Source: Candidatus Omnitrophota bacterium | GTDB taxonomy: Bacteria; Omnitrophota; Gorgyraeia; Zapsychrales; Fredricksoniimonadaceae | Length of the DNA: 64,000 nucleotides | Direction of reading: 5' to 3' | Assembly: GCA_015233675.1 (NCBI GenBank) | Contig: JADFXH010000007.1 | Span: 44,162-108,161, forward strand | Shown here: one piece after another, positions 26,903-46,271 of the stretch | Numbering within the stretch: the first letter of the stretch is position 1 | How the letters are laid out: every line of letters begins with the position of its first letter | Notes under the pieces: generated by a model | What the model saw: only the letters and a program-made list of their open reading frames with translations | What the model was told of the DNA's origin: nothing | Databases searched by the model: none | Position numbers and translations under genes: made by a program

Positions 26903-27051
26903 TTGCCTGCCTCACATACGCATAAATTAAAAGAACTAATTAAATTATAATAACAAATGGTCTATATAAAATATAACACTTTTTTTGGGCAAATGGTATT
27001 ATTTCGTTGTTTATGTCGTTGTTTAGCGGTTTAGCGGGCATGAAAGAATCA

Positions 27052-31497: not shown

Positions 31498-31551
31498 GAA
31501 ACTTACCTCTCGGGATCATTCAAACTAGCTCCCAGATCGTTTTTATGTCTG

Positions 31552-31974
31552 TTATCCTGAAATTTGAGACAAGAAGCCTTTTTCTTTGAAGTATAAGCTG
31601 TATTGCTGATCCATATTGACCATATGATTATCAAGCCAGCTCGATAAAAAGGCAACCAGCTCCTGCGGCAAGGCTTTATTCCCTGAATTGAATTCTTCCC
31701 AAAACTCCAGCACTTTGGAGGTACAATTGCGGTGTTCCTTTGTATGCATCTCATAGCCGGGATAGGAAAACCTGATCATGAGGATCTCTTCAGTCGAGAA
31801 ATGTGCCCCAACATATTTTACAAGAGCTTCAAAAGTACTCGTAAGGACGCCTTTTTCGCAGCCCAGTTGTACGGCATTATCTAAAACATTCAGGGCCTCT
31901 AGGATCTCCTGATGCTGCGCATCAATGACTTTAATGTGCACGCTCATCTGCGATCCCCAGACAAGTTTGGGCAT
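31552..31974 (-). CDS. bacteriohemerythrin-like protein
   Basis: 140 aa. IDAQHQEILEALN, HFSTEE, HTKEH and the NHMVNMD His/Glu/Asp ligand pattern are those of hemerythrin-like metal-binding domains. Confidence 0.75.
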   Translation of the reverse strand: MPKLVWGSQMSVHIKVIDAQHQEILEALNVLDNAVQLGCEKGVLTSTFEALVKYVGAHFSTEEILMIRFSYPGYEMHTKEHRNCTSKVLEFWEEFNSGNKALPQELVAFLSSWLDNHMVNMDQQYSLYFKEKGFLSQISG

Positions 31975-32000
31975 AGACTAACTCCGAGGTATATTGCCGG

Positions 32001-32666
32001 TCATTCCAAATCGATCATTTGAGTATTGCCCACATAATCAACACGTTTGAGCTGCTGCAGGGCATCGATCTTCTTGAGAATAGCAGTGACCTTGCTTAGT
32101 TCATTTTTTATTTTTGACAATGTCAAATGCTTTTTGTCCTTTGGGTCATTTTGAGACAAAAGGATTTCAAGATAGGTGATCGCCGCCATTAATGGTTGAT
32201 TCATATTATGGTTATACGTCACCACCATATTCTTAACTGTCTCGAGATTTGTAATTTGAATTTTTTCTTCTTCAGCCCTTTTGATGCGCAGATGGGCCTT
32301 CACCCGGGTTTTGACTTCTTCGGGATTTATAGGTTTACTAATATAATCAGCCGCTCCTACAGAAAAACATTTAACCATGTCTTCAGGCTTATTCATTGCG
32401 GTAATAAAAAGTATCGGGATAGACTGATGTTTTTCATGCTTCTTAAGCCTTTGGCAAACCTCAAAGCCGTCTATATCCGGCATGATGACATCAAGCAGTA
32501 TAATATCCGGCTTTTCACGCTCCACAGCATCGAGAGCAGCACGGCCGGAATCAGCTTGCACAACTTTATACCCCTCGTCAGCCTGTAAAAGCAGCATTGA
32601 TAAAAGCTCACGGTTCGTCTTTTTATCATCTACAACAAGTATTTTCGAGGTTACTCTTTCCGTCAT
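32001..32666 (-). CDS. receiver domain fused to an H-box/dimerisation-like domain without ATPase domain
   Basis: ILVVDDKKTNRELL ... ILLDVIMPDIDGFE receiver, then YNHNMNQPLMAAITYLEIL. The latter parallels the H-box [20 protein letters not shown] of the kinase at 33224-34390. No N/G boxes follow. Confidence 0.65.
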   Translation of the reverse strand: MTERVTSKILVVDDKKTNRELLSMLLLQADEGYKVVQADSGRAALDAVEREKPDIILLDVIMPDIDGFEVCQRLKKHEKHQSIPILFITAMNKPEDMVKCFSVGAADYISKPINPEEVKTRVKAHLRIKRAEEEKIQITNLETVKNMVVTYNHNMNQPLMAAITYLEILLSQNDPKDKKHLTLSKIKNELSKVTAILKKIDALQQLKRVDYVGNTQMIDLE

Positions 32667-33205
32667 TTCTTTTTATCCCATTTTTTGACGATCGCGCTGA
32701 TCTTGTCCTGCACCTTGCTTTTGATCTCAATATCACTAAGAATAGAGTTCAGCAACTCCTCGTGTTCTTCGGCCATACGCAGGATATCCAGTTTTAATTC
32801 TTCGTTATACCTTTCCAAACGGAAACGTTCAATCGCATGCTTCAAAGGAAGAAGCACCTTATCTTTATCCTCAATGGGTTTAAGGATGTAATCAAAAGCT
32901 CCTTCTCTTAGGGCGTCCTGACAGGTTTCCATCGTGCCGAATCCTGTTAAGAAAATCACAGGGATTTCTTTTTTCCTTAAATTAAGATATCTTAGTAATT
33001 CTATCCCCATTTTACCGGGCATTTTAAGATCACTGATAATAGCTTCAATATCTCTTTTTAATTCAACGACCTTAATAGCATTATCAACGCAATCCGCTAT
33101 GTACACCTGAAAACCTAATGCTTCCAGGAGTTCTTGAAGCGATTCTCTGATGGCTTCTTCATCATCCACTACTAAAACACAACCTTGTTTTTCCTTTGTT
33201 GCCAT
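32663..33205 (-). CDS. response regulator (receiver plus short helical C-terminal tail)
   Basis: VLVVDDEEAIRESL ... IISDLKMPGKMG ... FLTGFG ... KP. It has a 4-nt overlap with the next gene. Confidence 0.75.
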   Translation of the reverse strand: MATKEKQGCVLVVDDEEAIRESLQELLEALGFQVYIADCVDNAIKVVELKRDIEAIISDLKMPGKMGIELLRYLNLRKKEIPVIFLTGFGTMETCQDALREGAFDYILKPIEDKDKVLLPLKHAIERFRLERYNEELKLDILRMAEEHEELLNSILSDIEIKSKVQDKISAIVKKWDKKK

Positions 33206-33223
33206 GGTCTGCCTCCGGTTAAT

Positions 33224-34390
33224 TTACAAATTTTCCAATTCAGCTTTTAGCTCTTTATTTAATGCCTCAACACCGGCCAAATCCTGTTCTTTATCAAGAG
33301 GAAGCACAAAATAAAAAATCTTTCGCTCATTCTTTAAAGATGAAAACCCGATTACCCCTTTATGGCTTTTTATAATGGTAAAAGAAACGGAAAGACCAAG
33401 GCCGGTCCCTTTACCCGGGGCCTTAGTGGTAAAAAAGGGCTCAAAAAGATTCTCCTCTGATCCGCTTTTGACCGCTATCCCATTATCAATAACACCGGAG
33501 ACAATTGCGGGGAAGTTCTTCAATTTTTTAGAAATAAACCAGATGTGGCCGCCTTCCTGTTGATTAAATTTCTCATCAATGGCATCACGGGCATTGATCA
33601 GGAAATTAACCACCACATCCTGGATCTGGTAGCGGTCAATATAAACCTCAGGGAGGTCTTCTTGCAGTTGTAATTCCACGGCAATATTGTGGTCCTTGAA
33701 CTGTTGCGTCAAAAGAAAAAGTCCGTCAGTGATCGGGCGTTTGACGTCCCCTTCGGTAAAGGTGCCCATACGGCTACCGGAATATTCATGCATCCGCTTA
33801 ACGATAGTGCCAAGCCTGACAAACTGGTCCTTGATCTTGAGCATCTTGTTTTTCAGCACCAAATTTGTCACGAGAGCATCATTCATCAAGAGTCCCTCGA
33901 GATAGGATGATATGGCCATCAAAGGCTGGTTCATTTCATGGGCAACACCGGCACCCAATTCCCCCATCGCGGTCAATTTCGCAGCCCGTAAAAGCTGTGT
34001 CTGTTGGATTTTTAACTGCAGGTACAATCTTTGATTTTCCGCGGCCCGGTTGATATTCATACACAGTTCTTCTAAATTAAAAGGTTTAATAATATAATCA
34101 AAAGCCCCTTTTTTTAATGAGGCAATAGCGCTTTCCATGTCCCCATGCCCTGTCAGCATAATCACCTGCGCCTCGGCGTTCATGAGTTTAACTTTTTCCA
34201 GCATTTCCATGCCATCCATGCCGGGCATCGAAATATCGCAAATGATCACTTCCGGTTTCTCTTTGACAAAAGCTTCCAGGCCTTGCTCGCCGCTTGAGGC
34301 AACAAAAACCTCATAGTTCTTGAGTTCCAAGCTGCTTTTGAGCATCTTGCGCTGTATTTCTTCATCATCTACAATCAATATTTTTATCAT
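33224..34390 (-). CDS. receiver-histidine kinase fusion (REC-HisKA-HATPase)
   Basis: [14 protein letters not shown] ... [12 protein letters not shown] receiver, H-box [11 protein letters not shown]-box NARDAI and G-box GKGTGLGLS. Confidence 0.85.
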
Positions 34391-34413: not shown

Positions 34414-36027
34414 TCAGGATTTTTCAACGAAGGCGCGTTGTAAATTTTCAAAATTAATTTTTACCTGAAAATATAATTTCTTGATCTCTTCAATACTCCC
34501 TTTCTCTCTTGCCAGATTGTTTATCTCTGCGGCAGGCGTCGACACCGAAGTCAGCCTCAAATTAGAAAAAACCCCCTTTAGTATGTGCGAAGTTTGATCG
34601 ATATGAGTAAAATCATTTTCTACAATCGCTTTTTCTAAATTAGCAACGTCTGCACTTCCTTCCTCCACAGCCCCCCGCGCTATTTTTAAGTAAATATCTA
34701 GGGGGCATTGCAATTCTTTAGAATTTTGCTGGACCATTTCTTCAAACGAATTGATGTTGTTTTCATTGTTCATAGTTTCCCCTTCGCTAACCCCTCCCGC
34801 CAAGGGGAGGGAATCTAATTTGTTATTGCCCCCTCTCTCCAGGGGCGTAGAATTTAATGAACTATTGCCCCCCCCCACCAAAGGTGTGGAATTTAATGAG
34901 CTATTATGGTCTTTCTCAAGTTCAAGAGCCTTGATCTGCAGGGCCTTGATCTGGTCCTCATATTTCTGGATCATCTGGTCCATATGAATGGATTTGCGGA
35001 ATTCCTCAAACTCCTTGCCTTGGGCAAACTGCGCTATCGACTCAACCGCGCCTTTTGTCTTTTCATCGATAAGCTCAAGTTTCATCTTGCCTTCTTGGAT
35101 ACGCAATTTGATCTTGTGCAGTTCTTTCTTTTCTTCATCCATCAGCTTTTCAATATGAAACATTTCAATCTCTGATTTTTTGAAACGGGCCATACGTTCG
35201 CTTGTATCCTTCTGTGCGAGCGTCATGCGCTCGATCTGGTCAGTAAGACGCTTAATCACACTTTCCTTAACTGCGAGTTCTTCATTATTTTGCGGTACGT
35301 TCTTGCCCTGTTGCTCCATCATTGACAGCTGGGCCTTGAGCTTCACGAGCTCTTGCTCTTTCTGGCCGGACTCGGTTGCTTTTGTCTCAAGCTCAGCTTT
35401 AAGATTCTTAACTTCACTCAGAAGACGATTGATCTCGGTTTCCTTGACTGCGATTTCTTCAGTTTTTTGTAAGGCGCTCTTGCTTTCTTCTCCTAATCTT
35501 ATCAGCTCAACCTTGAGCTTCACAATCTCCTGTTCTTTCAAAGTGAATTCGTTCGCCTTGCCCTGGAGTTTTACTTTAAGACTCTCCACTTCACTGAGCA
35601 GGACCCTGTTCTCGCTTTCCTTATGCGCAAGCTCTTCACTGTTTTGAGAAACGTTTTTACCCTGTTCCTCCATTTTTGCCAACTGGACCTTGAGTTTCGT
35701 AAGCTCTAGTTCTTTCTGGGAGGACTCAGTCGCCTTTGACTCGAATTCTTCTTTAATCCTGCGCACTTCACCGACCAAATCCCGAAGATCATTATTTTTT
35801 GAAAGCAATTCTTCATTTTTTCGTGAGGTCTCAGCTTGCAATCTGTCGGATTCTTCTTTTATTTGTTCCAGCTCTTTCTTAAATTTCTCTGGAGCGGTTT
35901 CCGCAAAACTCAACTGCTCCTTTAATATTTTGATCTGCTTGTTTAATTTTGCGTCCTCATTAATGATATAAATGACAACACCGATAGCAACCACAGCACA
36001 CGTTATTGAAAAAATTATTAGGATCAT
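34414..36027 (-). CDS. membrane-anchored long coiled-coil protein with C-terminal HPt (histidine phosphotransfer) domain
   Basis: 537 aa. Contains an N-terminal TM (ILIIFSITCAVVAIGVVIYII), about 340 residues of heptad-rich E/K/L/Q sequence with about 59-aa internal repeats, and a C-terminal SHILKGVFSNLRL HPt signature. It has a 4-nt overlap with the upstream gene. Confidence 0.7.
   Translation of the reverse strand: MILIIFSITCAVVAIGVVIYIINEDAKLNKQIKILKEQLSFAETAPEKFKKELEQIKEESDRLQAETSRKNEELLSKNNDLRDLVGEVRRIKEEFESKATESSQKELELTKLKVQLAKMEEQGKNVSQNSEELAHKESENRVLLSEVESLKVKLQGKANEFTLKEQEIVKLKVELIRLGEESKSALQKTEEIAVKETEINRLLSEVKNLKAELETKATESGQKEQELVKLKAQLSMMEQQGKNVPQNNEELAVKESVIKRLTDQIERMTLAQKDTSERMARFKKSEIEMFHIEKLMDEEKKELHKIKLRIQEGKMKLELIDEKTKGAVESIAQFAQGKEFEEFRKSIHMDQMIQKYEDQIKALQIKALELEKDHNSSLNSTPLVGGGNSSLNSTPLERGGNNKLDSLPLAGGVSEGETMNNENNINSFEEMVQQNSKELQCPLDIYLKIARGAVEEGSADVANLEKAIVENDFTHIDQTSHILKGVFSNLRLTSVSTPAAEINNLAREKGSIEEIKKLYFQVKINFENLQRAFVEKS
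34788..34904. repeat. three tandem 39-bp units of a hairpin repeat, in-frame inside the HPt gene
   Basis: The units at 34788-34826, 34827-34865 and 34866-34904 each have the form C-rich arm / G-rich arm / GAAT(C/T)TAAT. Unit A forms a 7-bp GC hairpin (34792-34811). They translate as SLNSTPLVGGGNS / SLNSTPLERGGNN / KLDSLPLAGGVSE. Confidence 0.8.
35224..35739. repeat. about 177-bp (59-aa) tandem coding repeats, ~3 copies, in the coiled-coil region
   Basis: Protein-level repeats are KATESSQKELELTKLKVQLAKMEEQGKNVSQNSEELAHKESENRVLLSEVESLKVKLQG, KANEFTLKEQEIVKLKVELIRLGEESKSALQKTEEIAVKETEINRLLSEVKNLKAELET and KATESGQKEQELVKLKAQLSMMEQQGKNVPQNNEELAVKESVIKRL. Confidence 0.75.
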
Positions 36028-36644
36028 GCCTTTTCTCCACCAGGCTTAGGTTTTAAGCCCTTTAGCCTGCGAAGTTTTTCAAGTGTCGAATCGATCCCCT
36101 TGGATTCCTTCTCTTCAACGCCGATATCTTCAAGATTGCTTTGGACCTCTTGGTGAACATAAAGCTTGGAAAGATCAATCGACTCAAATTCGGCTGCTTC
36201 TTTAAGCTCCTGTAGCTTGTACTCGCGGGCAGGGCCGCTGAGACCTTTGAGCTCCTTTAGCATACCTGCAATCTTGTCGGAAAGCTTCTCCGATACAGCA
36301 TCGAGGGAACCTTGAAGGATCGCCCCCATATGCGTCTTAAATTCCTCGAGCGTCATGCCAGCTTGCCCCGCTGCAGGAGATGCTACAAGCGGCGCCGGCG
36401 GGACCGATAACGGGACAGCAGGGACCGGCGGCTCTGGTAGCACAGTTCTGGGCTCCTGTATCCTATTTTTCACCCGGGCCGTCACCACATCCATAGAACC
36501 CACAAATTCACCCAGCAGTAATTCCATCTCCATGAGCTCATCATTAAGCTCCTTACGTGACTGCTGAGTGGCATTGATCCTTTGAAATAATCTTGGGACC
36601 AAAACCTCGGGATCATCTATGGTATTTGTATCTTCAGGGCTCAT
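36024..36644 (-). CDS. hypothetical protein with central proline-rich linker (cluster-specific)
   Basis: 206 aa with LPEPPVPAVPLSVPPAPLVASPAAG between two helical segments. It has 4-nt overlaps at both ends, with the actin-like gene upstream and the HPt gene downstream. Confidence 0.5.
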   Translation of the reverse strand: MSPEDTNTIDDPEVLVPRLFQRINATQQSRKELNDELMEMELLLGEFVGSMDVVTARVKNRIQEPRTVLPEPPVPAVPLSVPPAPLVASPAAGQAGMTLEEFKTHMGAILQGSLDAVSEKLSDKIAGMLKELKGLSGPAREYKLQELKEAAEFESIDLSKLYVHQEVQSNLEDIGVEEKESKGIDSTLEKLRRLKGLKPKPGGEKA

Positions 36645-38032
36645 TGGCTCCCACCATTAATTGCATTAAACAAACATCCGCGCACAACACTGGTAAAAGG
36701 CTCCTTGGCGTGAAGGATATTCCCCACGGGAAATCCGAATTTAACCGATTTAATCTCCTCTTGGACGACATCAATAAAACCTGGCACCATGGATGATCCG
36801 CCTGCAAAAACGATATCAGCCGGCTCTTTAAAATGGGGAGTATCCGTGCTTTTGCCAAAGACACGGGCCATGTTCTCAATAAGATAATGGATATAATTAC
36901 GGTAATAGATCGCGATCGCTTCTTCTTCGCGGTTGGCGGGGATCTTGATACTCATGCCATGTTCCTTGATAGTTGAGACACGGGTCGTAGGGACACCAAG
37001 GACAGTCGCCGCGCTTTTATCGATCCAGTCACCGCCGCGCGTGATCGAAAACGACAGCACAGGCACAGACTTAAACGCGGCACATATATTGACCATGCCG
37101 GCCCCACAGGAAATGCCGATACCCGTAAAATCCTGATCTTCCATCTCGGAAAGGACAACGGCATATCCTTCGTCGATAACTAAAGGCTTAAAACCGATAT
37201 TCTTTAGGATCCCTTCAAAAACACCACGGTGGTAGATCGTATCCTGGTCGCGGTCAAGAGGTTTAGCGGGTACTGAAAAACAACAAACCTCGCCTTTTTC
37301 GCGAGGCTCCCATAAAATATTTTTCACTAAAAGCTGGATGATCGGGATAGACTCGGCTTCAGAAGGGTTTAATATCCCCATGTTCATGGACCGTTGTGTT
37401 TCCCGCCCGAAAATGTCCGCAAGCTCCAAAGCCATGCCACCTAAAACATAAAGTTTGTCCTGCAGGGCAACATATTTGATCTTAAGGCGTGTTAACAAAT
37501 CCTTGGTCGATTGATCACAACGCACGGAAAGAAAGGCATTGCGTTCATTCTTCACAAATACCCGTTTGTCCTCAACCTCACGGCTTGCGACAATATAGGC
37601 TGTTCCCAAGTCCAGGCCGACGCCTGTCCTGACCGCAGCGTTCCTGCCGCGGCTCAGCGCCGGAAGTACAACCGTAGTGGTTTCTTCTTCTTTGACAGGA
37701 ACCGGTTCTTGCTCTTCGCCCACCTCCTCGACCGTCTCCTCTTCCATGACAAATGCAAGCTTCTCGACAGGTGGAGGGGGAAGCTCTTCCCTTAGAAAAA
37801 CAGGCGGCTTGACGTCGCGGCCCATGGCGCGAGCACGAATATATTCGTTAATGGCGCGCAGTTTCGCGCGCATTTCGTCAACGGGAATTTCCTGGTCCCC
37901 ACGAAGTCTTTGAGGTTTAATTTCTTTTTCGTTAGAAAACTGCGGGCTCTTGCTTAGGTTGGAATAACTCTTTATCTTATCATTTATCTTTAATAATCGC
38001 TTTCTGATATCCTGCAATTCCTCATCGACCAC
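36641..38032 (-). CDS. actin-like ATPase (MamK/Mad28/MreB superfamily) with ~140-aa N-terminal extension
   Basis: GTG start at 38032 with AGAGG 7 nt upstream. Actin-fold motifs are GVGLDLGTAYIV (phosphate 1), FTGIGISCGAGMVNI (phosphate 2) and IVFAGGSSMVPGF (adenosine). It is a clear paralogue of 38134-39123. Confidence 0.7.
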   Translation of the reverse strand: MVDEELQDIRKRLLKINDKIKSYSNLSKSPQFSNEKEIKPQRLRGDQEIPVDEMRAKLRAINEYIRARAMGRDVKPPVFLREELPPPPVEKLAFVMEEETVEEVGEEQEPVPVKEEETTTVVLPALSRGRNAAVRTGVGLDLGTAYIVASREVEDKRVFVKNERNAFLSVRCDQSTKDLLTRLKIKYVALQDKLYVLGGMALELADIFGRETQRSMNMGILNPSEAESIPIIQLLVKNILWEPREKGEVCCFSVPAKPLDRDQDTIYHRGVFEGILKNIGFKPLVIDEGYAVVLSEMEDQDFTGIGISCGAGMVNICAAFKSVPVLSFSITRGGDWIDKSAATVLGVPTTRVSTIKEHGMSIKIPANREEEAIAIYYRNYIHYLIENMARVFGKSTDTPHFKEPADIVFAGGSSMVPGFIDVVQEEIKSVKFGFPVGNILHAKEPFTSVVRGCLFNAINGGSQ

Positions 38033-38090
38033 TTACTTGCCTCTTTCTTTCCGGCTTCCAAAACTTTTCTCATATCTTCTTTCTATAAAA

Positions 38091-38122
38091 GATTGCTTCG
38101 TCGCTTCGCTCCTCGCAATGAC
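38091..38122. repeat. GTCAT-type palindromic-unit repeat, single arm
   Basis: GATTGCTTCGTCGCTTCGCTCCTCGCAATGAC lies in the gap between the two actin-like genes. It belongs to the same family as the units at 46335, 50001, 60165 and 61564. Confidence 0.6.
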
Positions 38123-38133
38123 ACAGGCTCTTC

Positions 38134-39123
38134 CTATTCTACCTCGCTTAAGCCCGCCAGGAGGCATCCTCTTGCGGTCGCGTACAACGGCTCATCGGCA
38201 AGCCTTACAGTATTGATCGGTATGGGGAAAGACAATTTCTTTAATTCTTCCTTAAAGACATCAACAAACCCGCCGATCATTGAGGAGCCTCCGGCACACA
38301 CAATATCAATGGGTTCCGGGAATTGCGGCATCTGTTCGGCTTTCTCAAATTTATTCTTGATATTGACCAGCGTATAATTAATCAGATTGCGATAATAGAT
38401 ACAGACCGCTTCTTCTTCGCGATTGGCGGGCTTGTTAATATTGATCCCTTTTTCCTTGATGGCGGTCGCCCGGTTGACCTTGATACCGAGAACTTGGGCC
38501 ACATTCTTGTCGATCCAGTCACCCGCTCGGCTCGTCGCAAAACTGATGGCAGGGATCGTCTTATAAGCAACACAAATATTAAACATACCGCCGCCGGCAG
38601 AAATACCGATACCGGTAAAATCCTTGTCTCCTAATTCCGCAAACACCACCGCATGGCCCTCATTCATGGGCTTACCGGTATATCCTAAATTCTTAAGCGC
38701 CCCGGCAATTACGCTTGAGTGGTAAACAATATTGAAGTTCGCATCAACAGGGTCAGCGGGAACGGAATAATAACAAAGCTGTCCTTTTTCATCAGGTTTT
38801 CCAAGGACCGCGTCGATCAAAAGCCCAAAAATGGGAACCGCATCCGCTTCACCGGGACTCATGACGCCATCCTGCATAGGCCGGCGCACGGTTTTATTCA
38901 TGATATTAGCAAGCTCAAAAGCAGAATCACCGAGGATATAAACCTTATTACCCATTTCGGCATATTGTACTTTTTGCTTTTTCAGCATGCTCTTGGTAAA
39001 CGAATTCGCTTCAATATCCAAGAACGTATGGCGCATCAGCTTCAACTTGATCTTGCCGTCTGCTCCCTGTTCAGAGCCAACCAGGTTCATTGTTCCGACG
39101 TCTAATCCCTTAACTTTTCCCAT
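38134..39123 (-). CDS. actin-like ATPase (MamK/Mad28/MreB superfamily)
   Basis: The start was moved to the ATG at 39121-39123 (AGGAG 8 nt upstream). Motifs are VKGLDVGTMNLV, RRPMQDGVM, FTGIGISAGGGMFNI and IVCAGGSSMIGGF. The track extension to 39186 covers a hairpin. Confidence 0.7.
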   Translation of the reverse strand: MGKVKGLDVGTMNLVGSEQGADGKIKLKLMRHTFLDIEANSFTKSMLKKQKVQYAEMGNKVYILGDSAFELANIMNKTVRRPMQDGVMSPGEADAVPIFGLLIDAVLGKPDEKGQLCYYSVPADPVDANFNIVYHSSVIAGALKNLGYTGKPMNEGHAVVFAELGDKDFTGIGISAGGGMFNICVAYKTIPAISFATSRAGDWIDKNVAQVLGIKVNRATAIKEKGININKPANREEEAVCIYYRNLINYTLVNIKNKFEKAEQMPQFPEPIDIVCAGGSSMIGGFVDVFKEELKKLSFPIPINTVRLADEPLYATARGCLLAGLSEVE

Positions 39124-39158
39124 ACGAAAAACTCCTTTTTTAACGCCCCCACCTAAGC

Positions 39159-39176
39159 GCCTGCCTGCTGGCAGGC
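39159..39176. repeat. intercistronic GC hairpin
   Basis: GCCTGCC-TGCT-GGCAGGC, a 7-bp stem with a 4-nt loop, lies between the coiled-coil gene stop (39211) and the actin-like gene start (39123). Confidence 0.5.
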
Positions 39177-39210
39177 TTCTCCCCATCAGTGAGGAGGAAT
39201 AATAGGATTC

Positions 39211-40023
39211 CTATTTATGTTTAGCTTTATAGTAATGTTCTCTGGCACGAGCCCTGGTATCAGCAAGCATCAGACGAATCTCATCAAGGCTCTCCTTGCT
39301 GCGCTCAAGTTCACGGCTGGCCTGGTCTCTTTCAGCAATGATACTGCCAAGTTGGGTTTCCGCCGCATCAAGTTTCCCTGAAATGGATTCTTTCTCATCC
39401 TCCAAAAGCGAAACCTGATGGTGCAGGCTCTGGATCGTCTTGTTAGCGCTCGAAAGCTCAAGCTCAATTTGTTCGATCCTGGTATCACGGGCTTCGCACT
39501 CTTTCTCAAGAGCCGCCATCTTGTTTGTCTGGTCCTTGATGACTGCTTCCCTGCCCTCAAGTTCTTCTTCCACAGACTTCATTTTTCCGACTGACTCAAG
39601 CCGTTCATTTTCAAGAAACTCGAGCTCGGAATTAAGCTCTTCCTGAGAAACCAGCAAACCTTTCATCTCTTTTAACTTTGCCTCGGCGATGGCCGCCTTT
39701 TCTTCCGCCTTTTGGCAACGCTCTTTTAAATTATTAATATCCTTTTCCTGGGCATCCTTAAGACTAAATGAAGCATCCAACTGCTTCTCTAGGTCTCCAA
39801 TGATTTCAAAAACGCTGACCTTCTCCTCCTCGGGAGACATGATATATTTTGTCGAATCCTTAATCTGCCTGACCGCAGAACGGATGGCCGCCTTTGATTC
39901 TGAGGACGTCGTTGCCGGCCTTTGGATCGCTGGCTTTATTGTTGACTGAAGAAGCGGATTATCTATGAGCTTGCTTTTTCTTGAATCCATGCCCCTGTTA
40001 GCTAACTTTTCTTGTTTTTCCAT
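39211..40023 (-). CDS. coiled-coil protein (cluster-specific)
   Basis: 270 aa, of which about 190 residues are E/K/L/Q-rich heptad sequence. Strong RBS AAGGAGA lies 6 nt before the ATG at 40023. It overlaps the ParA-like gene end by 26 nt. Confidence 0.55.
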   Translation of the reverse strand: MEKQEKLANRGMDSRKSKLIDNPLLQSTIKPAIQRPATTSSESKAAIRSAVRQIKDSTKYIMSPEEEKVSVFEIIGDLEKQLDASFSLKDAQEKDINNLKERCQKAEEKAAIAEAKLKEMKGLLVSQEELNSELEFLENERLESVGKMKSVEEELEGREAVIKDQTNKMAALEKECEARDTRIEQIELELSSANKTIQSLHHQVSLLEDEKESISGKLDAAETQLGSIIAERDQASRELERSKESLDEIRLMLADTRARAREHYYKAKHK

Positions 40024-40759
40024 TCAGGATCTCCTTTGCTAATTGACGGTAAGCCTCCGCCCCTTTGGAAGTCTTGTCATACTTATATATAGGAAGGTGG
40101 GCATTATGGGCTTCTTCTATCTTGATATTCTCCGGGATCACGGCCTTAAAAACCTTCTTGCCAAAATAATTCCTGATGGCGTCACGAGCCTCATTGGTCA
40201 CAACACGCTCGCGGTATCGGGTGATCACGACCCCGGTTATCTCAATATCGGAACCAAGTCCATGGCGGACATTCTCAACAATTTCTTCTAAAAGCTTGAT
40301 CCCTTTCAGGGAAAAAAATTCAGGGCAAATAGGCACAACAAGTTCATGACAAGCCGTCAGGGCATTGACAGTCAAAAGCCCCAAAGACGGCGGAGCGTCA
40401 ACAATCATAAAATCATACTTGAGCTTCTGCGTATAATGGTACAGCACTTTTTCGCGGCCGATATGCTCGTTAATCCGCAAAGTGGCGCCTGAGAGTTCAA
40501 TATCACTAGGCACGACGTCAATCCCAAAAGCATCGGAATGCTGGACGACGGTACGGATATCCATCTTATCGACAATGACATTATAAATATTAAATTCAAA
40601 ACGCTGGTTACCGAAGATGGCCGCCGTGGAAGAATACTGAGGGTCCATGTCAATTAAAATAACCTTTTTACCCGCCCGCGCAAGTTCAGCGGCCAGATTC
40701 AATGAAGTTGTGGTCTTGGCAACGCCGCCTTTTTGATTAGCGACACAGATTTTTCTCAT
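39998..40759 (-). CDS. ParA/MinD-family P-loop ATPase
   Basis: Deviant Walker A ANQKGGVAKTTTS with the signature lysine, IDMDPQ, and Walker B-like FMIVDAPPSLG. Confidence 0.85.
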   Translation of the reverse strand: MRKICVANQKGGVAKTTTSLNLAAELARAGKKVILIDMDPQYSSTAAIFGNQRFEFNIYNVIVDKMDIRTVVQHSDAFGIDVVPSDIELSGATLRINEHIGREKVLYHYTQKLKYDFMIVDAPPSLGLLTVNALTACHELVVPICPEFFSLKGIKLLEEIVENVRHGLGSDIEITGVVITRYRERVVTNEARDAIRNYFGKKVFKAVIPENIKIEEAHNAHLPIYKYDKTSKGAEAYRQLAKEILNGKTRKVS

Positions 40760-40763
40760 GGAT

Positions 40764-41066
40764 TCACTCTGACTTTCCTGATTCTAATAAAGCAGTTGCA
40801 TCACTAAACAAAGCGCCTATCTGAAAACATACGCTATTTAAAAATCCTTTGCGTGAAGAACTCTCGGCCTTAGAACTTTTGATAACTGTTTTATATTCCG
40901 GTTTCGTAACTGCAGAACTCGGCACTTCGACAACGTCCTGCTGTAAAGCGCGGACTTTCTTTATCCGGGAAACGGTCTTCCTGATAGGAAGCGACGATGC
41001 GCCCTTGACTGCAACCGCCTTTGACTTGGCAGGACTCTTTTTTTGTTTCTTCTTAGCCTGTGGCAA
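40764..41066 (-). CDS. small highly basic protein (Lys-rich N-terminus)
   Basis: 100 aa beginning MPQAKKKQKKSPAKSKAVAVKG. It lies 4 nt upstream of the ParA-like gene. Confidence 0.45.
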   Translation of the reverse strand: MPQAKKKQKKSPAKSKAVAVKGASSLPIRKTVSRIKKVRALQQDVVEVPSSAVTKPEYKTVIKSSKAESSSRKGFLNSVCFQIGALFSDATALLESGKSE

Positions 41067-41078
41067 AGCTTCTCCTTA

Positions 41079-41267
41079 TTAGCCCTTCGCGTAACCCTCG
41101 TAGAAGGATTCTTTCGCATCAGTTAAGATCGAAGTCATCTTTTCGCCGGCCCCATCGATTGATCCCTTGACCTTTTTGATGAAGTCAGGATTTTTCTTTT
41201 CCAATATCTTGTAACCAACAACACCGACAAAAACCACGGCCACTGCCGCTAATAAACCTTTAAACAT
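41079..41267 (-). CDS. small single-TM protein with amphipathic tail
   Basis: 62 aa. The N-terminal TM is LLAAVAVVFVGVVGY, followed by a charged helix. Confidence 0.4.
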   Translation of the reverse strand: MFKGLLAAVAVVFVGVVGYKILEKKNPDFIKKVKGSIDGAGEKMTSILTDAKESFYEGYAKG

Positions 41268-41269
41268 AG

Positions 41270-42304
41270 CTACCCCCTTGTTAAGTTTCGTTTAAATTTT
41301 GTCTGATTCTCTCGCCACCAGAACCTCCAAGACTCAATAGCGTCTTCCTTATCCCTTTTCGTGGACTTGGCTTTAAAGCCAAAATCCTCACCCGTTATTT
41401 TCTTTAATGATGCCGCAGCCGTTAACTGGACATCGCTTTCAGGATCTGCCAAAAGCGTAATAAGCCCTGATATAGCTTGTGGCACCTTCAGAGCACCGGA
41501 AATCTGGCTTGCGGCCTTTCTGACACCGGAATCCGGATCATGCAAAGCATTAACAGCATAAATCACGCATTTATCGCCAAAGCTCCAGCAAAGGCAATTT
41601 AAAATCTGCCTGCGCACCTCAGGGTCTTTATCTTTTATGAAAGAAACTAAAATATTAAAGCCTTCATCATCGTGATATTTGGAGATAGCCCGCAGGGCTG
41701 CCAGACGTATGCCTGTATCCTGGTGGTGAATGAATTTCTTGAATACATCTTTAGAAGTGGTTGCCTCTTCGCTGATAAATGCCAAGGCATTTAATAATTC
41801 AATGATCTGCAAAGTGTCTTGCTCGCGGGAAAGCAGATCTTCAAGCATCGCGGTTGCTGTGGCCCCCGAAAGCTTCTTGATCTGGCGCAAGGCCTGCATC
41901 CGTATGGCCCTGCTGGGCGACTGGAGGTCCCTAAAATATATTTCCACCTCGACCTCTTCGGTCTTGTTGGCATATGCCATATCTTTCATTGCGACCATAC
42001 GATTAGCAGGCTTCTTCGGGGCAACAGGCTCTGGAGTTATTCTCTCTAAAACAGCCGGAGGCGCTTCTGCCAGAGGCGATTCTTCCGTAGCTACCAAGGG
42101 AGCTGTTGGGATAATCACCGGCGACGGAGCTTGAGGCTGGACAACAGGAATAGGCATGGACACAGAGGACTTTGGAAAACTCTGACGTGGCATACTCTTG
42201 CCAAATGTAAAAAGATAGTTAAATTCTTTTTCCACGCCTTTGACCGCAGCTCCAAGAAAATGAGCCAAATTGTTCTGACCACCCGACGGAATTTTTGTTT
42301 GCAT
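41270..42304 (-). CDS. HEAT-repeat (PBS-lyase type) protein
   Basis: The C-terminal 200 aa contain repeats SPSRAIRMQALRQI, HQDTGIRLAALRAI, DKDPEVRRQILNCL, DPDSGVRKAASQI and DPESDVQLTAAASL. The N-terminus is proline-rich. Confidence 0.7.
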   Translation of the reverse strand: MQTKIPSGGQNNLAHFLGAAVKGVEKEFNYLFTFGKSMPRQSFPKSSVSMPIPVVQPQAPSPVIIPTAPLVATEESPLAEAPPAVLERITPEPVAPKKPANRMVAMKDMAYANKTEEVEVEIYFRDLQSPSRAIRMQALRQIKKLSGATATAMLEDLLSREQDTLQIIELLNALAFISEEATTSKDVFKKFIHHQDTGIRLAALRAISKYHDDEGFNILVSFIKDKDPEVRRQILNCLCWSFGDKCVIYAVNALHDPDSGVRKAASQISGALKVPQAISGLITLLADPESDVQLTAAASLKKITGEDFGFKAKSTKRDKEDAIESWRFWWRENQTKFKRNLTRG

Positions 42305-42356
42305 AAAATATTACCTGTCAAGTAAAGGTTGCCCCTGAACATTAAATTGCTTTTTT

Positions 42357-42384
42357 ATTATAAAGTCGTGAAAATAAAAAGCAA
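42357..42384 (-). promoter_or_regulatory. candidate internal sigma70-type promoter (TTGCTT-16 nt-TATAAT)
   Basis: On the minus strand, TTGCTT (42379-42384) and TATAAT (42357-42362) are separated by a 16-nt spacer. The site is in an AT-rich 99-nt gap about 50 nt upstream of the ATG at 42304. Confidence 0.3.
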
Positions 42385-42403
42385 GAAATTATAAAAAAAT
42401 AAA

Positions 42404-42589
42404 TCAAATGTCTTTTGACTTTTTTAGCAAGTCTTCCTTCTTCTGTTTGACATAATCAATGAGTCCTGTTAAACGCTCAACTTCCAGCTCAAGGTCCTTG
42501 CTGTGGCCGCCGTATGTAAATACGATCCTGTGGTCCCTGTGCCATTCGTAAAATTGCCTGCCCAGAGCTTGAAAACAGCGTTTATCCAT
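42404..42589 (-). CDS. small hypothetical protein
   Basis: 61 aa counted from the ATG at 42589 (MDKRCFQALGRQFYEWH...). No family was recognised and coding status is uncertain. Confidence 0.25.
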   Translation of the reverse strand: MDKRCFQALGRQFYEWHRDHRIVFTYGGHSKDLELEVERLTGLIDYVKQKKEDLLKKSKDI

Positions 42590-42634
42590 ATGCTTGACAC
42601 TCCATGCGGGCCGACACAAAATCGGCCCCTACAA

Positions 42635-42979
42635 TCAACCAATCAACATTTTTAAAGCCCGGCTTACAGCAGCGGAAGCTTTGCCCGCGCTGTATGCGCC
42701 CACTGCGATAAAATCCCGCGGCTTCACATCTTTAAGATCAGACTTAAACTGACGGCTAACACCCTTGAACATCAAAATTGTTTCATCCGTGATCTTTTTG
42801 CCCTTAAGGCCCTTAAGCTTGCTGTCCTCATCCAGGATAATATCCGCAACGCGCTGGGCGCTTTCTGATACGTTATGACCAATGCCAGCCACGGACTTTT
42901 TGATAATAGCGGCCTTGCGGCCCACATCTTTAGCCTCTATGACCTTTTTAATCTTTTTTTTCTTCGTCGAACTTGGCAT
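42635..42979 (-). CDS. small basic hypothetical protein (cluster-specific)
   Basis: The start was moved to the ATG at 42977-42979 (MPSSTKKKKIKK...), 1 nt after the stop of the upstream 565-aa gene. The track extension overlaps that gene. Confidence 0.45.
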   Translation of the reverse strand: MPSSTKKKKIKKVIEAKDVGRKAAIIKKSVAGIGHNVSESAQRVADIILDEDSKLKGLKGKKITDETILMFKGVSRQFKSDLKDVKPRDFIAVGAYSAGKASAAVSRALKMLIG

Positions 42980-42980
42980 A

Positions 42981-44678
42981 TTATTTCCGTCTTTTATTTT
43001 CCGCTGGCAAAACCGCTTTCTGCCCGAGCTTGTTGCCGGCAGCACTCTCCCTTTGTAAATCACGCAAGAGACGAGGTTTGGTATAACTTTCTTTAGCGAT
43101 CGCCTTCCAAACCCGCGCCTGCCGCTTGCGCTCAGGAAGAGGCGCTGAATAATCATACCCCTTATCTGTCCCGGTTATTGCCATAAGGGCTTCAATAGTT
43201 TCTTTACAAACCTTAATATTAACTGATTCTAGTTTCGGGACTAAAGTCACAAAGGCAAAATGGTTCGCCATAATCCCAAGCTTGCGAATCGCCAAACGAG
43301 CAACTCCTTCATCGCTATCACCGGAAAGACGCGCAATGGCCTCTGCTTCGGGACCACCGGCCCTGTGATCGAGATGGTTGACGATAAAACGTCTGATATG
43401 AGCATCAGGATCCCTGATAGCGGACACGATAACATGCTTTGCTTCCTCGGAGCCGAGCTTAACGAGCCCCATCATCCCCTGCAGCCGAAGCGAAGAATTC
43501 TCATCATTGATAAAGCGACGATAAACATCGACCATGGTCGGATAGTCCAGCGTGCCCAAAAGTGAAATGAGCTTCCTTTGAAAAAAAATATCCGCTTCAC
43601 GGGTGAGTTCATAAAGAAAAGGGACCGCCCTTTTAGGAGCATTACGAAAAAGAGTATGTAAGACCGCGAGCTTATCATCATCCGAAGTGCTCTCATTTCC
43701 CAGTTTGCGTGAGGCGGTCTCCAACAGGCCGTAGTCTCCCTGGTCCTCGAGCTCTTCGTCATTTCCGTTCTCAACGACTTCCTGTTGTTCGGACAAAACT
43801 TCTTCTTGTGTTTCACCAGAAACTTCTTCGGCGAGATCTTCCGGATATTCCGGTAGCGGCACAGGAGGTTCCAACGGCTGGGTGACAGGACGGAAAGATC
43901 CCTGACGGTCAATACGCGCCAGCTCAAGGTCTTTTTCATAGACATCGTTGATATTTTTAAAAAGGACGATGACCTCGTCGATAAGGTCATCCACACGCCT
44001 GGTCGTCTCGTTGACTTCCAGCCTAATCTGCTCAAGGAAAGACTCTTCAGCCTTCCACATGGCAACCTCGGGATTGTCCGCAAAAAATTTCTTTTTATTT
44101 TCCATAATACGTTTGATCTCCTCCCGCTTCTGGGCCATCAAAAAAGTAATCTTTTGGATCTTTTCATCCACAGCGGCCTGATAAGCCGCAGTCCTCTCGC
44201 CAGTAGTGTGCATAAGACCCGCAGAAAGACAATCACTCAAATCCTTCTGGACATCGAGGATCTTATTTTCGGCCACACGCAACGCAACATTAAGCTTAGT
44301 GTATGGCTCAAATTGCCCCCGCCGGGATATCCCGGATGGGCGCTGTTCTTGACTAACAGGCGCTGGCGCAAAAGAAACATCAGCCTCTCCCACACAGTTA
44401 ATCGGCAGGGATTCTGAAACTTTGAATTTTGGCAATGGCTCGGACTTAGCTACCGATAAAGGCTCCCGCTTCTCTTTTCTGTCAGAAATCTTTTCTGCGA
44501 CAACATCCCTGATAAGCCGCTTGGCTACAACCGTTAATTTAGGATTATCCGGTTCAAAATAATAAGCAATAGCCCCTGCCTGAATATTCTCATAAAGCAG
44601 CCTGCCGAAGGTGATGAATAAAGAATCAGCCTGTTTTTCGCATTCCTGAAGAAATTCACGTGTATTTTTTGTTGGCAT
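42981..44678 (-). CDS. coiled-coil plus HEAT-repeat protein
   Basis: 565 aa. Contains a helical N-terminal half, an acidic linker (EEVSGETQEEVLSEQQEVVENGNDEELEDQ), and HEAT units DENSSLRLQGMMGL, DPDAHIRRFIVNHL and DSDEGVARLAIRKL. Its start overlaps the upstream stop in a TAATG arrangement. Confidence 0.65.
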   Translation of the reverse strand: MPTKNTREFLQECEKQADSLFITFGRLLYENIQAGAIAYYFEPDNPKLTVVAKRLIRDVVAEKISDRKEKREPLSVAKSEPLPKFKVSESLPINCVGEADVSFAPAPVSQEQRPSGISRRGQFEPYTKLNVALRVAENKILDVQKDLSDCLSAGLMHTTGERTAAYQAAVDEKIQKITFLMAQKREEIKRIMENKKKFFADNPEVAMWKAEESFLEQIRLEVNETTRRVDDLIDEVIVLFKNINDVYEKDLELARIDRQGSFRPVTQPLEPPVPLPEYPEDLAEEVSGETQEEVLSEQQEVVENGNDEELEDQGDYGLLETASRKLGNESTSDDDKLAVLHTLFRNAPKRAVPFLYELTREADIFFQRKLISLLGTLDYPTMVDVYRRFINDENSSLRLQGMMGLVKLGSEEAKHVIVSAIRDPDAHIRRFIVNHLDHRAGGPEAEAIARLSGDSDEGVARLAIRKLGIMANHFAFVTLVPKLESVNIKVCKETIEALMAITGTDKGYDYSAPLPERKRQARVWKAIAKESYTKPRLLRDLQRESAAGNKLGQKAVLPAENKRRK

Positions 44679-45169
44679 TATACTTCCGCAACATCCTTGG
44701 TGACATTTTCAATTTCTTTTTCAAGATCAAGATTAACCGGCGCTTTTTTTTCGATCTGAGCCTTACTTTTAGTTTTTCTGACAGGACTTTTAGCGTTGGT
44801 CTTCTTACCCACGACTTTCTTTTTATGCGCAACAGGGACTTCAATAACAGCCTCTTTTTTCTGCAGGGTTGTTTTCTTGGATGAGCTCTGGAGGTGTCCT
44901 TCACCGACAGAATCCATCCCAGCCTTAAAAGACGCCCTTATTTCCCGCGTGCTTTTCTCAACGGTATCGGTCACCTGGCCCAATACAACCTCAGCCTTCT
45001 CACCAAAGGATTCACAAATATCCTGAGTTGCCACGACCATGCTTTTCAAAGGCTTCTTTTCTGCTACCTGGCCTAACTCCACAACCTTTTTGCAAAGAAA
45101 CCCCGTCTTGTACGAAAGGGTCTTTAAGAGCCCTATTATTTCATCTTTCTTACCTTTTTCTTTTACCAT
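44678..45169 (-). CDS. Lys-rich hypothetical protein (cluster-specific)
   Basis: 163 aa. It overlaps the upstream gene by 20 nt. No family was recognised. Confidence 0.45.
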   Translation of the reverse strand: MVKEKGKKDEIIGLLKTLSYKTGFLCKKVVELGQVAEKKPLKSMVVATQDICESFGEKAEVVLGQVTDTVEKSTREIRASFKAGMDSVGEGHLQSSSKKTTLQKKEAVIEVPVAHKKKVVGKKTNAKSPVRKTKSKAQIEKKAPVNLDLEKEIENVTKDVAEV

Positions 45170-46271
45170 AATTTTTATTCCTTTTTCTTTCGGGCATGAG
45201 CTTTTCTAATGCCTTCTCAGCCGCTTTTTTAACGTCTTGCTCTTTATCAGAAAGCAAATTCTTGACTACGGTCAGCGCTCCCTCGGGTTTAACGATTGAC
45301 AACATCTCCAGCAAACTTATACGGACATAAGGATTAGTGTCTTCCCAAGCTGTAATTGCCTTCTTAACACCTTCCTTGCCATAATAAATCCCCAAATAGG
45401 TCACGGCAAGCCCGCGGATATGCTCGTCACTGTCACTCAACAGGCCATCGAGAATCTTACGGTTCCTGTCACTCACATGACTGCCGAGCCCCTTGACCGC
45501 CGCTGTCCTGACCTTGGCATCAGCGTCATTCATGCCCAAGTCAAAGAATCCTTCAGCTTCGCCTTGTTTCATCCGTGATACATTCTTGATAACAGCAAGG
45601 CGGACCAGGCTGCTCTCATCCTTCATCGCAAATTCGTAAACCTGGTGCAGGATATCTTTCGGGGTAATATGGGCGATCTGGCCGATAGCGACCTCGCGTT
45701 CACGCTGGGTGCCCATTGAAAGCTGATTGATATTCTTTTCAAAAAGCCTCCTGTCCGCATCACAATTGAAACTGGCCGTCTCCAAAAGCCGGGTTAAAGT
45801 GTCATCCGGCCTGATCCTCTCCTCAACAAACGGAGAGCTCGCTGAACTTTCTTCCTCAACGGCTTTATTAACCTCAGATTCGACAGTACTCGTTTCTTCA
45901 AGCTCAATTTCGTCTTCTACTACGGCCTCTTGCTGGATCTCACCTTCATCTTCCTTTTCATCTTCTACTGCAGATTCCGCTTCAAGCTCATCTTCAACCT
46001 CATCTTCAATCTCATCTTCCTCTTGATAGACGGCTGTGTCATCCTCTGACTCTTCCTCATCTTCATCCTCAAGCTCCTCAATCTTCGTTATCCTTTCATC
46101 CAGATAATCCAAAAGCCTCGTAATCTTTTCAATCTCTTGTTCTTTTGGGCGGTCTTCAGATGCAAAACCAAAACTTATCTCTTTAGATTTATAAAGTTTA
46201 TAAACCGCTTCGCCGAACAAAAAGATCAACTTTCTCTGTTTAGACTTAAGTTCTTGCAGATGTTGATCCAT
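45150..46271 (-). CDS. acidic-domain plus HEAT-repeat protein
   Basis: RBS AGGAGAG lies 7 nt before the ATG. Residues ~65-150 are extremely Glu/Asp-rich (EELEDEDEEESEDD...EDEIEDEVEDELEAES...). The C-terminal HEAT units are DADAKVRTAAVKGL, DSDEHIRGLAVTYL, DTNPYVRISLLEML and DKEQDVKKAAEKAL. Confidence 0.65.
   Translation of the reverse strand: MDQHLQELKSKQRKLIFLFGEAVYKLYKSKEISFGFASEDRPKEQEIEKITRLLDYLDERITKIEELEDEDEEESEDDTAVYQEEDEIEDEVEDELEAESAVEDEKEDEGEIQQEAVVEDEIELEETSTVESEVNKAVEEESSASSPFVEERIRPDDTLTRLLETASFNCDADRRLFEKNINQLSMGTQREREVAIGQIAHITPKDILHQVYEFAMKDESSLVRLAVIKNVSRMKQGEAEGFFDLGMNDADAKVRTAAVKGLGSHVSDRNRKILDGLLSDSDEHIRGLAVTYLGIYYGKEGVKKAITAWEDTNPYVRISLLEMLSIVKPEGALTVVKNLLSDKEQDVKKAAEKALEKLMPERKRNKNYGKRKR

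Follow-up and report, generated by a model that had tools for sequence, protein, structure and literature searches.

Is the magnetosome chain positioned by more than actin-like filaments? This question is raised by a gene for a ParA-type ATPase in a 64,000-nt stretch of a Candidatus Omnitrophota genome (contig JADFXH010000007.1), which is referred to in its whole length as the window and within which all coordinates are given. To date, actin-like filaments have been the explanation for how magnetosome chains are positioned and inherited (PMC5059902). A conserved pair of a ParA and its activator in the magnetosome gene clusters (MGCs) of several deep-branching phyla would be a further engine with a different mechanism. 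A sequence-only reading of the window had singled out a trio of genes, all on the minus strand, for a small basic protein of 100 aa, the ATPase, and a coiled-coil protein of 270 aa, and had suggested that this trio could partition or space the magnetosome chain. Based on the analysis described here, we give a somewhat better than even chance to a ParA positioning system within the MGC that lacks ParB and distributes, centres or segregates magnetosome chains.

The ParA ATPase

The ATPase matches the Pfam families AAA_31 (E 4.8e-49; 167 bits, cut-off 27) and CbiA (E 5.7e-28; 98 bits, cut-off 25), and its nearest solved structures are the ParA 8RAY and the Soj proteins of T. thermophilus (1WCV/2BEK) and H. 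pylori (6IUB), with E-values of 1e-48 to 1e-40. The Walker A motif KGGVAKTT occupies residues 10-17 (40709-40732), and K10 and K15 of the signature lysine motif are invariant in 33 homologues. The aspartates D37 and D39 (switch I) and D121 (Walker B) are also invariant, as is Arg185 (40205-40207), which aligns with the DNA-binding arginine in the DGR/DAR motif of Soj. These residues and matches place the ATPase among the ParAs of Soj type (small, type Ib). The identification as MinD was considered and rejected: a membrane-targeting helix, minC and minE are all missing, and the NCBIfam MinD models scored far below their cut-offs. The C-terminus ...AKEILNGKTRKVS is polar, with a mean hydropathy of -0.79.

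No ParB was found among the ORFs (open reading frames) of the window by ParB profile search, no second ParA is present in the window, and parS-like matches in it are no more frequent than in shuffled sequence. A neighbour-joining tree with bootstrap was built with canonical Soj proteins as outgroups. These were taken from a profile scan of genome contigs with the ParA alignment, in which the matches listed were mostly distant Soj and not the close Omnitrophota relatives, and which is also the source of the side observations on partner peptides given below. The clade of ParAs whose partners carry an NPLF-type peptide was separated from canonical Soj with 100% bootstrap, and C145, F149, S150, R181, H218 and H221 are specific to it. 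The ParAs of Omnitrophota and KSB1 were grouped with 76% bootstrap. ParAs that are 56-60% identical to the window ParA adjoin parB; therefore, the window ParA descends from a partition-type lineage. The chromosomal Soj was rejected as an identity for it, since the window is without ParB and parS, canonical Soj is only ~40% identical and falls outside the clade, and an Omnitrophota genome (locus L018) has a separate canonical parAB. Chromosomal ParABS genes commonly lie close to mnmE/mnmG/rsmG; the window ParA is followed by a coiled-coil gene and surrounded by magnetosome genes. The sequence-only reading would have counted its proposal as refuted by an ATPase that groups with chromosomal Soj beside parB/parS. 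This condition applies only by half: such kinship is indeed seen in the parB-adjoining relatives, but the window ParA's own clade never stands beside parB.

The probable coiled-coil partner and its ParB-type peptide

Family searches with the 270-aa protein returned only sub-threshold coiled-coil matches. In the AlphaFold2 model, residues 1-62 are mostly disordered with low pLDDT and one short helix (42-55), and residues 64-269 (39217-39834) are predicted to form one continuous helix of ~205 residues with pLDDT >90, corresponding to a rod of ~30 nm. The family alignment consists of an N-terminus with basic residues and the sequence LIDNPLLQST, a variable linker, and a conserved coiled coil ending in ...REHYYK, which in the window protein is extended to the basic end ...REHYYKAKHK. 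The N-terminal segment RKSKLIDNPLLQST (39940-39981), made up of basic residues and LIDNPLLQST, is a docking peptide of the ParB type, and its D21, N22 and L24 are invariant in 28 homologous sequences.

This peptide is shared with the other partners of the surrounding ParA clade, where the motif [KR]..[ILV][DE]NPL[FL]..T opens every partner gene, in Bdellovibrio as a variant. It reads ATRLADNPLLKKT in L090 and ARAVIDNPLFKKT in L006 (Planctomycetota), both of which encode a true ParB, MARAKIDNPLFSKT in a 150-aa protein of plasmid-like context (L094), and KKKIDNPLFAPT in a 393-aa coiled-coil protein (L093, Planctomycetota). The coiled-coil partners of KSB1 (L005) and Hydrogenedentes (L007) carry PAIENPLFENT and RRKSIDNPLFTPT, respectively, and the 144-165-aa proteins of Bdellovibrio (L008-L010) carry the variant K(A/H)NPLF(Q/L)DST. 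Canonical ParBs, including that of Omnitrophota L018, open with LGRGLxAL rather than the xIDNPL(F/L) peptide. In a background set of 4,125 ORFs of >=100 aa from 92 loci, the pattern [DEN]NP[LF][LF] within the first 50 residues was found 12 times, and all 12 ORFs are the gene directly downstream of a ParA of this clade. Within the window, the pattern is unique to the 270-aa protein.

It was reported that short, positively charged N-terminal peptides on diverse protein bodies are established activators of ParA/MinD ATPases, and a disordered N-terminus followed by a long helix is also how known activators, PomX among them, are built (PMC7993993; bioRxiv 10.1101/2022.06.09.495121). Based on the shared peptide and this mode of activation, the 270-aa protein is taken as the probable cognate ATPase activator and cargo adaptor, which would stand in the place of ParB with a rod instead of DNA-binding domains. 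An adjacent co-conserved partner, a disordered positive N-terminal peptide and a rod body, by which a ParA with an activating partner of the McdAB or PomXYZ kind is recognised, are all present. The earlier suggestion that the coiled-coil neighbour is an adaptor of the ATPase thus gains the sequence hallmarks of one, namely the peptide common to the ParBs of the clade and its 12/12 specificity.

Conservation and linkage to magnetosome genes

Loci were fetched around ParA homologues, a MamP homologue and homologues of the 270-aa protein, and the window proteins were mapped onto them by phmmer. The order in Omnitrophota is HEAT3, a 62-aa protein, the basic protein, ParA, the 270-aa protein, Mad28a, Mad28b, a 206-aa protein, and a coiled-coil protein with Hpt domain. 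This block order recurs, as far as the contigs reach, in L001, L003, L004, L086, L087, L096 and L100, with fragments on shorter contigs. The ParA and 270-aa genes are adjacent and usually overlapping in 16/16 Omnitrophota loci that cover both positions. Because order and overlap recur in related Omnitrophota loci, the arrangement of the ParA and coiled-coil genes is not due to chance. Mad28a follows directly after the coiled-coil gene in 13 Omnitrophota loci, with Mad28b conserved next to it, and orthologues of both the 206-aa protein (E 1e-55 to 1e-69) and the coiled-coil/Hpt protein after the block were found in L001, L003, L004, L086 and L096. The 62-aa protein is conserved in all Omnitrophota loci and has a weak match in L029.

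HEAT3 lies upstream of ParA, either directly or past the transmembrane and basic genes, in the covered Omnitrophota loci, in L005 of KSB1, and in L007 and L029 of Hydrogenedentes; in each case the ParA-upstream HEAT gene best matches HEAT3, not HEAT1 or HEAT2. In KSB1 (L005), a HEAT gene, a ParA gene (product 60% identical) and a gene for a 218-aa coiled coil are located ~3-4 kb from mamI/A/Q/B-type genes. On the short Hydrogenedentes contigs, HEAT and ParA genes are paired in L007 and L029, with a coiled coil next in L007; L029 ends within ParA. Across phyla, the conserved core is HEAT–ParA–coiled coil only. Co-occurrence of the neighbours with ParA across related Omnitrophota clusters, which the sequence-only reading had named as a check, is borne out, and its trio is real and conserved; as a unit the trio was drawn too small, since the conserved unit extends from the HEAT protein through the coiled-coil/Hpt protein.

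The strand of the window that carries the trio also encodes a MamE-like protease, PDZ and magnetochrome proteins (MamP-like), two CDF transporters (MamM/B), the TPR protein MamA, the LemA protein MamQ, a CitMHS/PDZ protein, a TauE protein of the MamO C-terminal type, FeoB, FecR, and a DtxR/FeoA protein, and the first 25 kb of the window consist of housekeeping genes. The window holds a genuine and complete MGC. The magnetosome setting assumed earlier for the trio is thereby upheld, by MamE/P/M/B/A/Q, the MamO C-terminal (TauE) protein, FeoB, HEAT proteins and two Mad28. The 270-aa and MamP-like proteins are each 100% identical to proteins on one contig of a Candidatus Omnitrophica metagenome-assembled genome, where the 270-aa entry is named hypothetical protein. 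Homologues of ParA, the coiled coil and MamP are found on shared contigs. In the window, L003, L004, L086 and L088, feoB, fecR, HEAT and mam genes adjoin the block without a break. Omnitrophica GWA2_45_18 has been published as carrying an MGC (PMC5955933); its block (6-14 kb) and its mam genes (36-52 kb) are on one contig ~20 kb apart (L001, L092), and therefore the block moves as a unit.

The housekeeping flanks of L001 and L088 had raised the suspicion of a general module of non-magnetotactic Omnitrophota. This was largely rejected, because GWA2_45_18 has mam genes ~20 kb away and L088 begins with an MGC-tail gene, with the organism's MamP on the same contig; CP070807.1 is the sole probable exception. 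In this complete 1.8-Mb Omnitrophota genome (L002; CP070807.1, 293556-314308), a reduced block is situated amid glycine-cleavage and other housekeeping genes. A truncated HEAT gene is followed by genes for two small proteins (one of 68 aa, one of 97 aa and extremely rich in K/R), for ParA, and for a rod of 277 aa. Mad28 is missing from this reduced version; the gene after the rod has no Pfam match, and its sequence looks to us like that of an ATP-grasp enzyme.

Proposed mechanism and alternatives

Replacement of ParB by a rod that keeps the ATPase-docking peptide suggests a machine that moves or spaces the magnetic organelle, not DNA. In the proposed mechanism, the Soj-type ParA probably binds the nucleoid as an ATP dimer, and the flexible N-terminal peptide of the 270-aa protein, the gene for which is translationally coupled to parA, would dock on it, stimulate hydrolysis and switch it off. 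The rigid coiled-coil rod of ~30 nm would link the ParA-docking peptide to the cargo, most likely the magnetosome chain or its scaffold, via the co-conserved HEAT protein and/or Mad28 filaments. Through repeated rounds of binding by ParA and of hydrolysis stimulated by the partner, chains would be distributed, centred or segregated, side by side with the actin-like filaments. The scheme is built on what was seen of gene structure, protein families, the shared peptide, conserved gene order and linkage to the MGC; that the partner stimulates the ATPase, that ParA binds the nucleoid and what the cargo is are presumed. A role in magnetosome positioning is well supported by gene context, from which we infer it. 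In D. magneticus RS-1, chain assembly depends on HEAT (Mad23), coiled-coil (Mad25/26) and Mad28 proteins, which also interact among themselves (PMC12748827 / preprint); this network makes a link between rod and chain plausible, without demonstrating it in Omnitrophota.

Other readings of the pair have to be weighed against positioning of the chain. The pair may regulate the cytoskeletal scaffold itself, controlling how Mad28 filaments or the HEAT/coiled-coil network are assembled, how long they become or where they are placed, much as MipZ and PomZ act on FtsZ. The two Mad28 genes directly after the pair in 13 loci, the interaction of Mad25 with Mad28 in RS-1 (PMC12748827), and other ParA relatives coupled to a cytoskeletal FtsZ with a partner-like N-terminal peptide are all consistent with such a role. 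KSB1 and L088, however, keep HEAT–ParA–coiled coil with no Mad28 detected within the 8-10 kb flank, and the DNA-binding arginine of Soj is retained; regulation of a scaffold is considered unlikely. It is less probable still that the pair positions a signalling assembly of the coiled-coil/Hpt protein and the downstream kinases and response regulators, in the manner of ParC/ParP or PpfA/TlpT. The block does end with the coiled-coil/Hpt gene followed by response regulator and histidine kinase genes in the window, L001, L003, L086 and L096, but the downstream genes are mam genes in KSB1 and housekeeping genes in L088, and only HEAT–ParA–coiled coil is conserved across phyla.

A DNA partition system, with the basic protein as the centromere binder of the chromosome or of an MGC-bearing island, is the least likely rival and is regarded as very improbable. 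In its favour, genuine parAB operons and a plasmid-type pair belong to the ParA lineage, and the tail of the basic protein is rich in Lys, with a zinc-ribbon motif CxxxxC...CxxH in the orthologues of L001, L003 and L087. Against this stand the missing ParB, parS matches not above chance and a single ParA in the window, the location of the ParB-type peptide on the coiled-coil protein and not on the basic protein, the lack of mobile-element genes flanking the block, the absence of the basic protein from the KSB1 and Hydrogenedentes versions, and the separate canonical parAB of the Omnitrophota genome L018.

Several points weigh against the positioning of magnetosomes itself. The second Arg-rich motif of Soj, PRNVRL, reads PENIKI in the window ParA, as likewise in its ParB-linked sisters. 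Nucleoid binding is suggested by one conserved arginine, and the physical link between rod and magnetosome is suggested by gene context only. The tree leaves the monophyly of all HEAT-linked ParAs and the placement of Hydrogenedentes open. The 15.6-kb contig with the ParA–coiled-coil pair of Planctomycetota (L093) is free of mam genes, and none of the MamP homologues listed maps to CP070807.1, where the pair may work without magnetosomes. In the literature searched, no explicit link between ParA and magnetosomes, no description of Mad29 as ParA-type, and no functional analysis of mad29 (see below) was found. With these points taken into account, the positioning system remains the favoured reading. 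In a bolder form, deep-branching magnetotactic bacteria would use a type I (ParA-driven) organelle machine, in which the docking peptide of ParB has been grafted onto a ~30-nm rod that is attached via HEAT and/or Mad28 proteins to the chain, and inheritance would combine a nucleoid ParA gradient with actin-like filaments; this is put forward tentatively, the chances being somewhat against it.

Gene arrangement of the operon and its surroundings

The genes of the block are listed in Table 1. From HEAT3 to Mad28a, the successive genes are separated by gaps of 2, 12 and 4 nt, an overlap of 26 nt, and a gap of 24 nt, and no terminator-like sites were found between them in a promoter/terminator scan that was otherwise uninformative. 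Based on the short gaps, the overlap and the lack of an intergenic terminator, the trio is the middle of one long, tightly packed minus-strand operon. The three ORFs were as first described, in coordinates, the 4-nt gap, the 26-nt overlap, the Walker A sequence KGGVAKTT, and the strong ribosome-binding site (RBS) of the coiled-coil gene. Mad28a likely starts at M22 (39123), as its orthologues have 329-330 aa, and Mad28b carries an N-terminal extension of ~135 aa. The 62-aa, 100-aa and 206-aa proteins have no family match in Pfam or NCBIfam.

Table 1. Genes of the ParA block in the window, from the first gene to the last.
Feature	Position	Strand	Remarks
HEAT3, Mad23-like HEAT-repeat protein, 344 aa	41270..42304	-	first gene of the block; Pfam HEAT_2 E 1.1e-19
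62-aa protein	41079..41267	-	start 2 nt past HEAT3 stop; hydrophobic N-terminal segment MFKGLLAAVAVVFVGVVGY...
100-aa basic protein	40764..41066	-	TTG start 6 nt after AGGAGA RBS; begins MPQAKKKQKKSPAKSK
ParA ATPase, 253 aa	39998..40759	-	start 4 nt past basic-protein stop; Walker A KGGVAKTT
270-aa coiled-coil partner	39211..40023	-	ATG 7 nt after AAGGAG; 26-nt overlap with parA end
Mad28a, Mad28-type actin-like protein, ORF of 350 aa	38134..39186	-	Pfam Volactin E 1.2e-79
Mad28b, Mad28-type actin-like protein, 463 aa	36641..38032	-	Pfam Volactin E 3.2e-81
206-aa protein	36024..36644	-	co-conserved with the block; no Pfam match
537-aa coiled-coil protein with C-terminal Hpt	34414..36027	-	last gene of the block before two-component genes; Pfam Hpt E 5.9e-06

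The two Volactin/Mad28 paralogues (36641-39186, -) are the only actin-like genes in the 64-kb window, and MamK is absent from it, the NCBIfam MamK model scoring <=29 bits against a cut-off of 400. Upstream of the trio, three paralogous HEAT genes (373, 565 and 344 aa; 41270-46271, -) are interleaved with genes for small proteins lacking a family match, a pattern retained in L003, L004, L086, L087 and L100. Of the three paralogues, only the third best matches the ParA-adjacent HEAT genes of other phyla. An ORF at 42635-43156 (-) overlaps HEAT2 by 176 nt; its orthologues have 103-112 aa, and translation probably begins at Met60 (MPSSTKKKKIKK...), in which case the cluster would encode a second small protein whose N-terminus is rich in Lys. 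On the other side of the block, the 537-aa Hpt protein contains internal repeats, and its gene is followed (26483-34390, -) by genes for response regulators, histidine kinases, a hemerythrin, and a 1481-aa CHASE hybrid kinase. Comparable signalling genes come after the block in L001, L003, L086 and L096.

The small basic protein

The 100-aa basic protein consists of a Lys-rich N-terminus (41019-41066), a helix with VSRIKKVRA, and a conserved hydrophobic C-terminal helix with KGFLNxVCFxxGALFSD (40773-40853), and its residues K5, K10, V32, S33, I35, K37, K73, G74, N77, G84 and D89 are invariant. AlphaFold2 predicted a mostly disordered protein (mean pLDDT 58) with helices at 28-43 and 72-98. Only 8 cluster representatives were found among 1.84 billion proteins. 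The protein is fast-evolving and confined to Omnitrophota, yet its position is kept across all Omnitrophota loci; phmmer mapping of the fetched loci gave no equivalent gene in the KSB1 and Hydrogenedentes versions. Both neighbours of ParA had been proposed as adaptors, and this holds for the coiled coil, with its ParB-type peptide and its conservation across phyla, but not in the same way for the basic protein, which is limited to Omnitrophota. It may be an Omnitrophota-specific accessory, and could be a second activator or a DNA/nucleoid tether.

The orthologues in L001 (7601-7954), L003 (9623-9997) and L087 (9629-9988) contain the zinc-ribbon-like sequence KKCSVxGCRxxxLxxGxCxxH, and the window protein is without the CxxxxC...CxxH motif. 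In L088 (9656-9910) and in L089, which has the same sequence, the frame of the basic protein is intact and ends in ...ILDVLCFEAGKSVGRLKHLFKK, and no ATG, GTG or TTG start follows the stop codon of the small gene before it. This may be explained by an unusual start, by read-through or by decay.

Partners of related ParA lineages

Other combinations of ParA and partner were encountered in the profile scan. In L028, L034, L041, L047 and at least ~40 further loci of Actinomycetota (Gaiellales, Solirubrobacterales, Thermoleophilia), the gene for a Soj-like ParA lacking ParB is coupled in translation to a downstream gene for FtsZ, an ORF from about position 10731 of each locus (Pfam Tubulin and FtsZ_C, E ~1e-45). 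The N-terminal extension of this FtsZ begins with basic residues and RASMREGPLAELFRxTE, so FtsZ occupies the position of ParB with a partner-like peptide. In Chloroflexota (L023, L024, L051, L078), a ParB-less ParA is followed by a small protein of no known family with the N-terminus KKGGLADSPFF, and in Bdellovibrionales (L008-L010, Bdellovibrio bacteriovorus) by small proteins likewise without family. The N-termini in Bdellovibrio and Chloroflexota suggest further lineage-specific partner peptides.

Significance

The loci of the window ParA's clade present one ParA lineage that has been re-targeted, with a peptide of ten residues kept and the rest of the partner exchanged for ParB, a plasmid-type protein or coiled-coil rods, and neighbouring ParA lineages with different N-terminal peptides have other partners next to them, including FtsZ. 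If the bolder form of the positioning model holds, it would be the first case of a membrane-bounded bacterial organelle served by ParA, and would clearly exemplify re-targeting of a partition system through exchange of the adaptor body. The model would also give a concrete role to the little-studied mad29-type gene, and the xIDNPLL peptide offers an experimental handle.

Comparison with known systems

In Magnetospirillum, segregation is driven by MamK through actin treadmilling (type II-like) and has been explicitly contrasted with ParA-based systems (PMC5059902). The presumed task, placement and partitioning of the chain, is the same here, whereas in the window a ParA-based (type I-like) component is accompanied by actin-like genes, and MamK is missing. 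With the Mad23/25/26/28 network of D. magneticus RS-1, the block shares the HEAT, coiled-coil and Mad28 actin proteins in the MGCs of deep-branching magnetotactic bacteria.

In these bacteria, a gene beside mad28, mad29, has been credited with no more than an "AAA ATPase domain", which "may provide energy", and the order in Nitrospirota LHC-1 is mad29, mad28(I), mad28(II). The window order of ParA, coiled coil, Mad28a and Mad28b and the top Pfam match AAA_31 fit the position and the ATPase description of mad29. Nitrospirota Mad29 has ~300 aa against 253 aa for the window ParA, the name Mad29 is attached to none of the best 120 ParA homologues, and no Mad names occur among the homologues of the 270-aa protein. 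The window ParA is probably mad29, matched by gene position and description, not by sequence, in which case the candidate module would be less new than first supposed.

In the McdA/McdB system, a ParA-type ATPase and a small adaptor with a basic disordered N-terminus and a coiled coil are encoded beside organelle genes (PMC7182216, PMC10554743). The window shares this layout of ATPase, adaptor type and neighbouring organelle genes. It differs in that the partner is a long single rod and not a condensate former, and in that the organelle is membrane-bounded. The window ParA also keeps the classical signature lysine in KGGVAKTT, which classical McdA lacks. In PomXYZ of Myxococcus xanthus, nucleoid-bound PomZ is activated by a short positive N-terminal peptide on the coiled-coil, cargo-carrying scaffold PomX (PMC7993993). 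The layout of the activator, an N-terminal positive peptide grafted on a coiled-coil body, is the same in the window. The partners, however, have no sequence homology, the peptide is the ParB-type xIDNPLL motif, and the setting of the cargo is not the divisome but a magnetosome cluster that encodes HEAT and actin-like proteins; no PomY-like second activator was identified, a role which the basic protein might fill.

The ParABS systems of the same clade (L006, L090 and the plasmid-like L094) have ParAs that are 52-60% identical, a downstream gene that likewise overlaps parA, and the xIDNPL(F/L) peptide, but their partners are ParB (ParB_N and helix-turn-helix) or a small DNA-binding plasmid-type protein, where the window has a coiled coil. 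The closest mechanistic analogues of the pair are PomX/PomZ and McdB/McdA, and by descent it stands nearest to the parAB and plasmid-type pairs of its own ParA clade.

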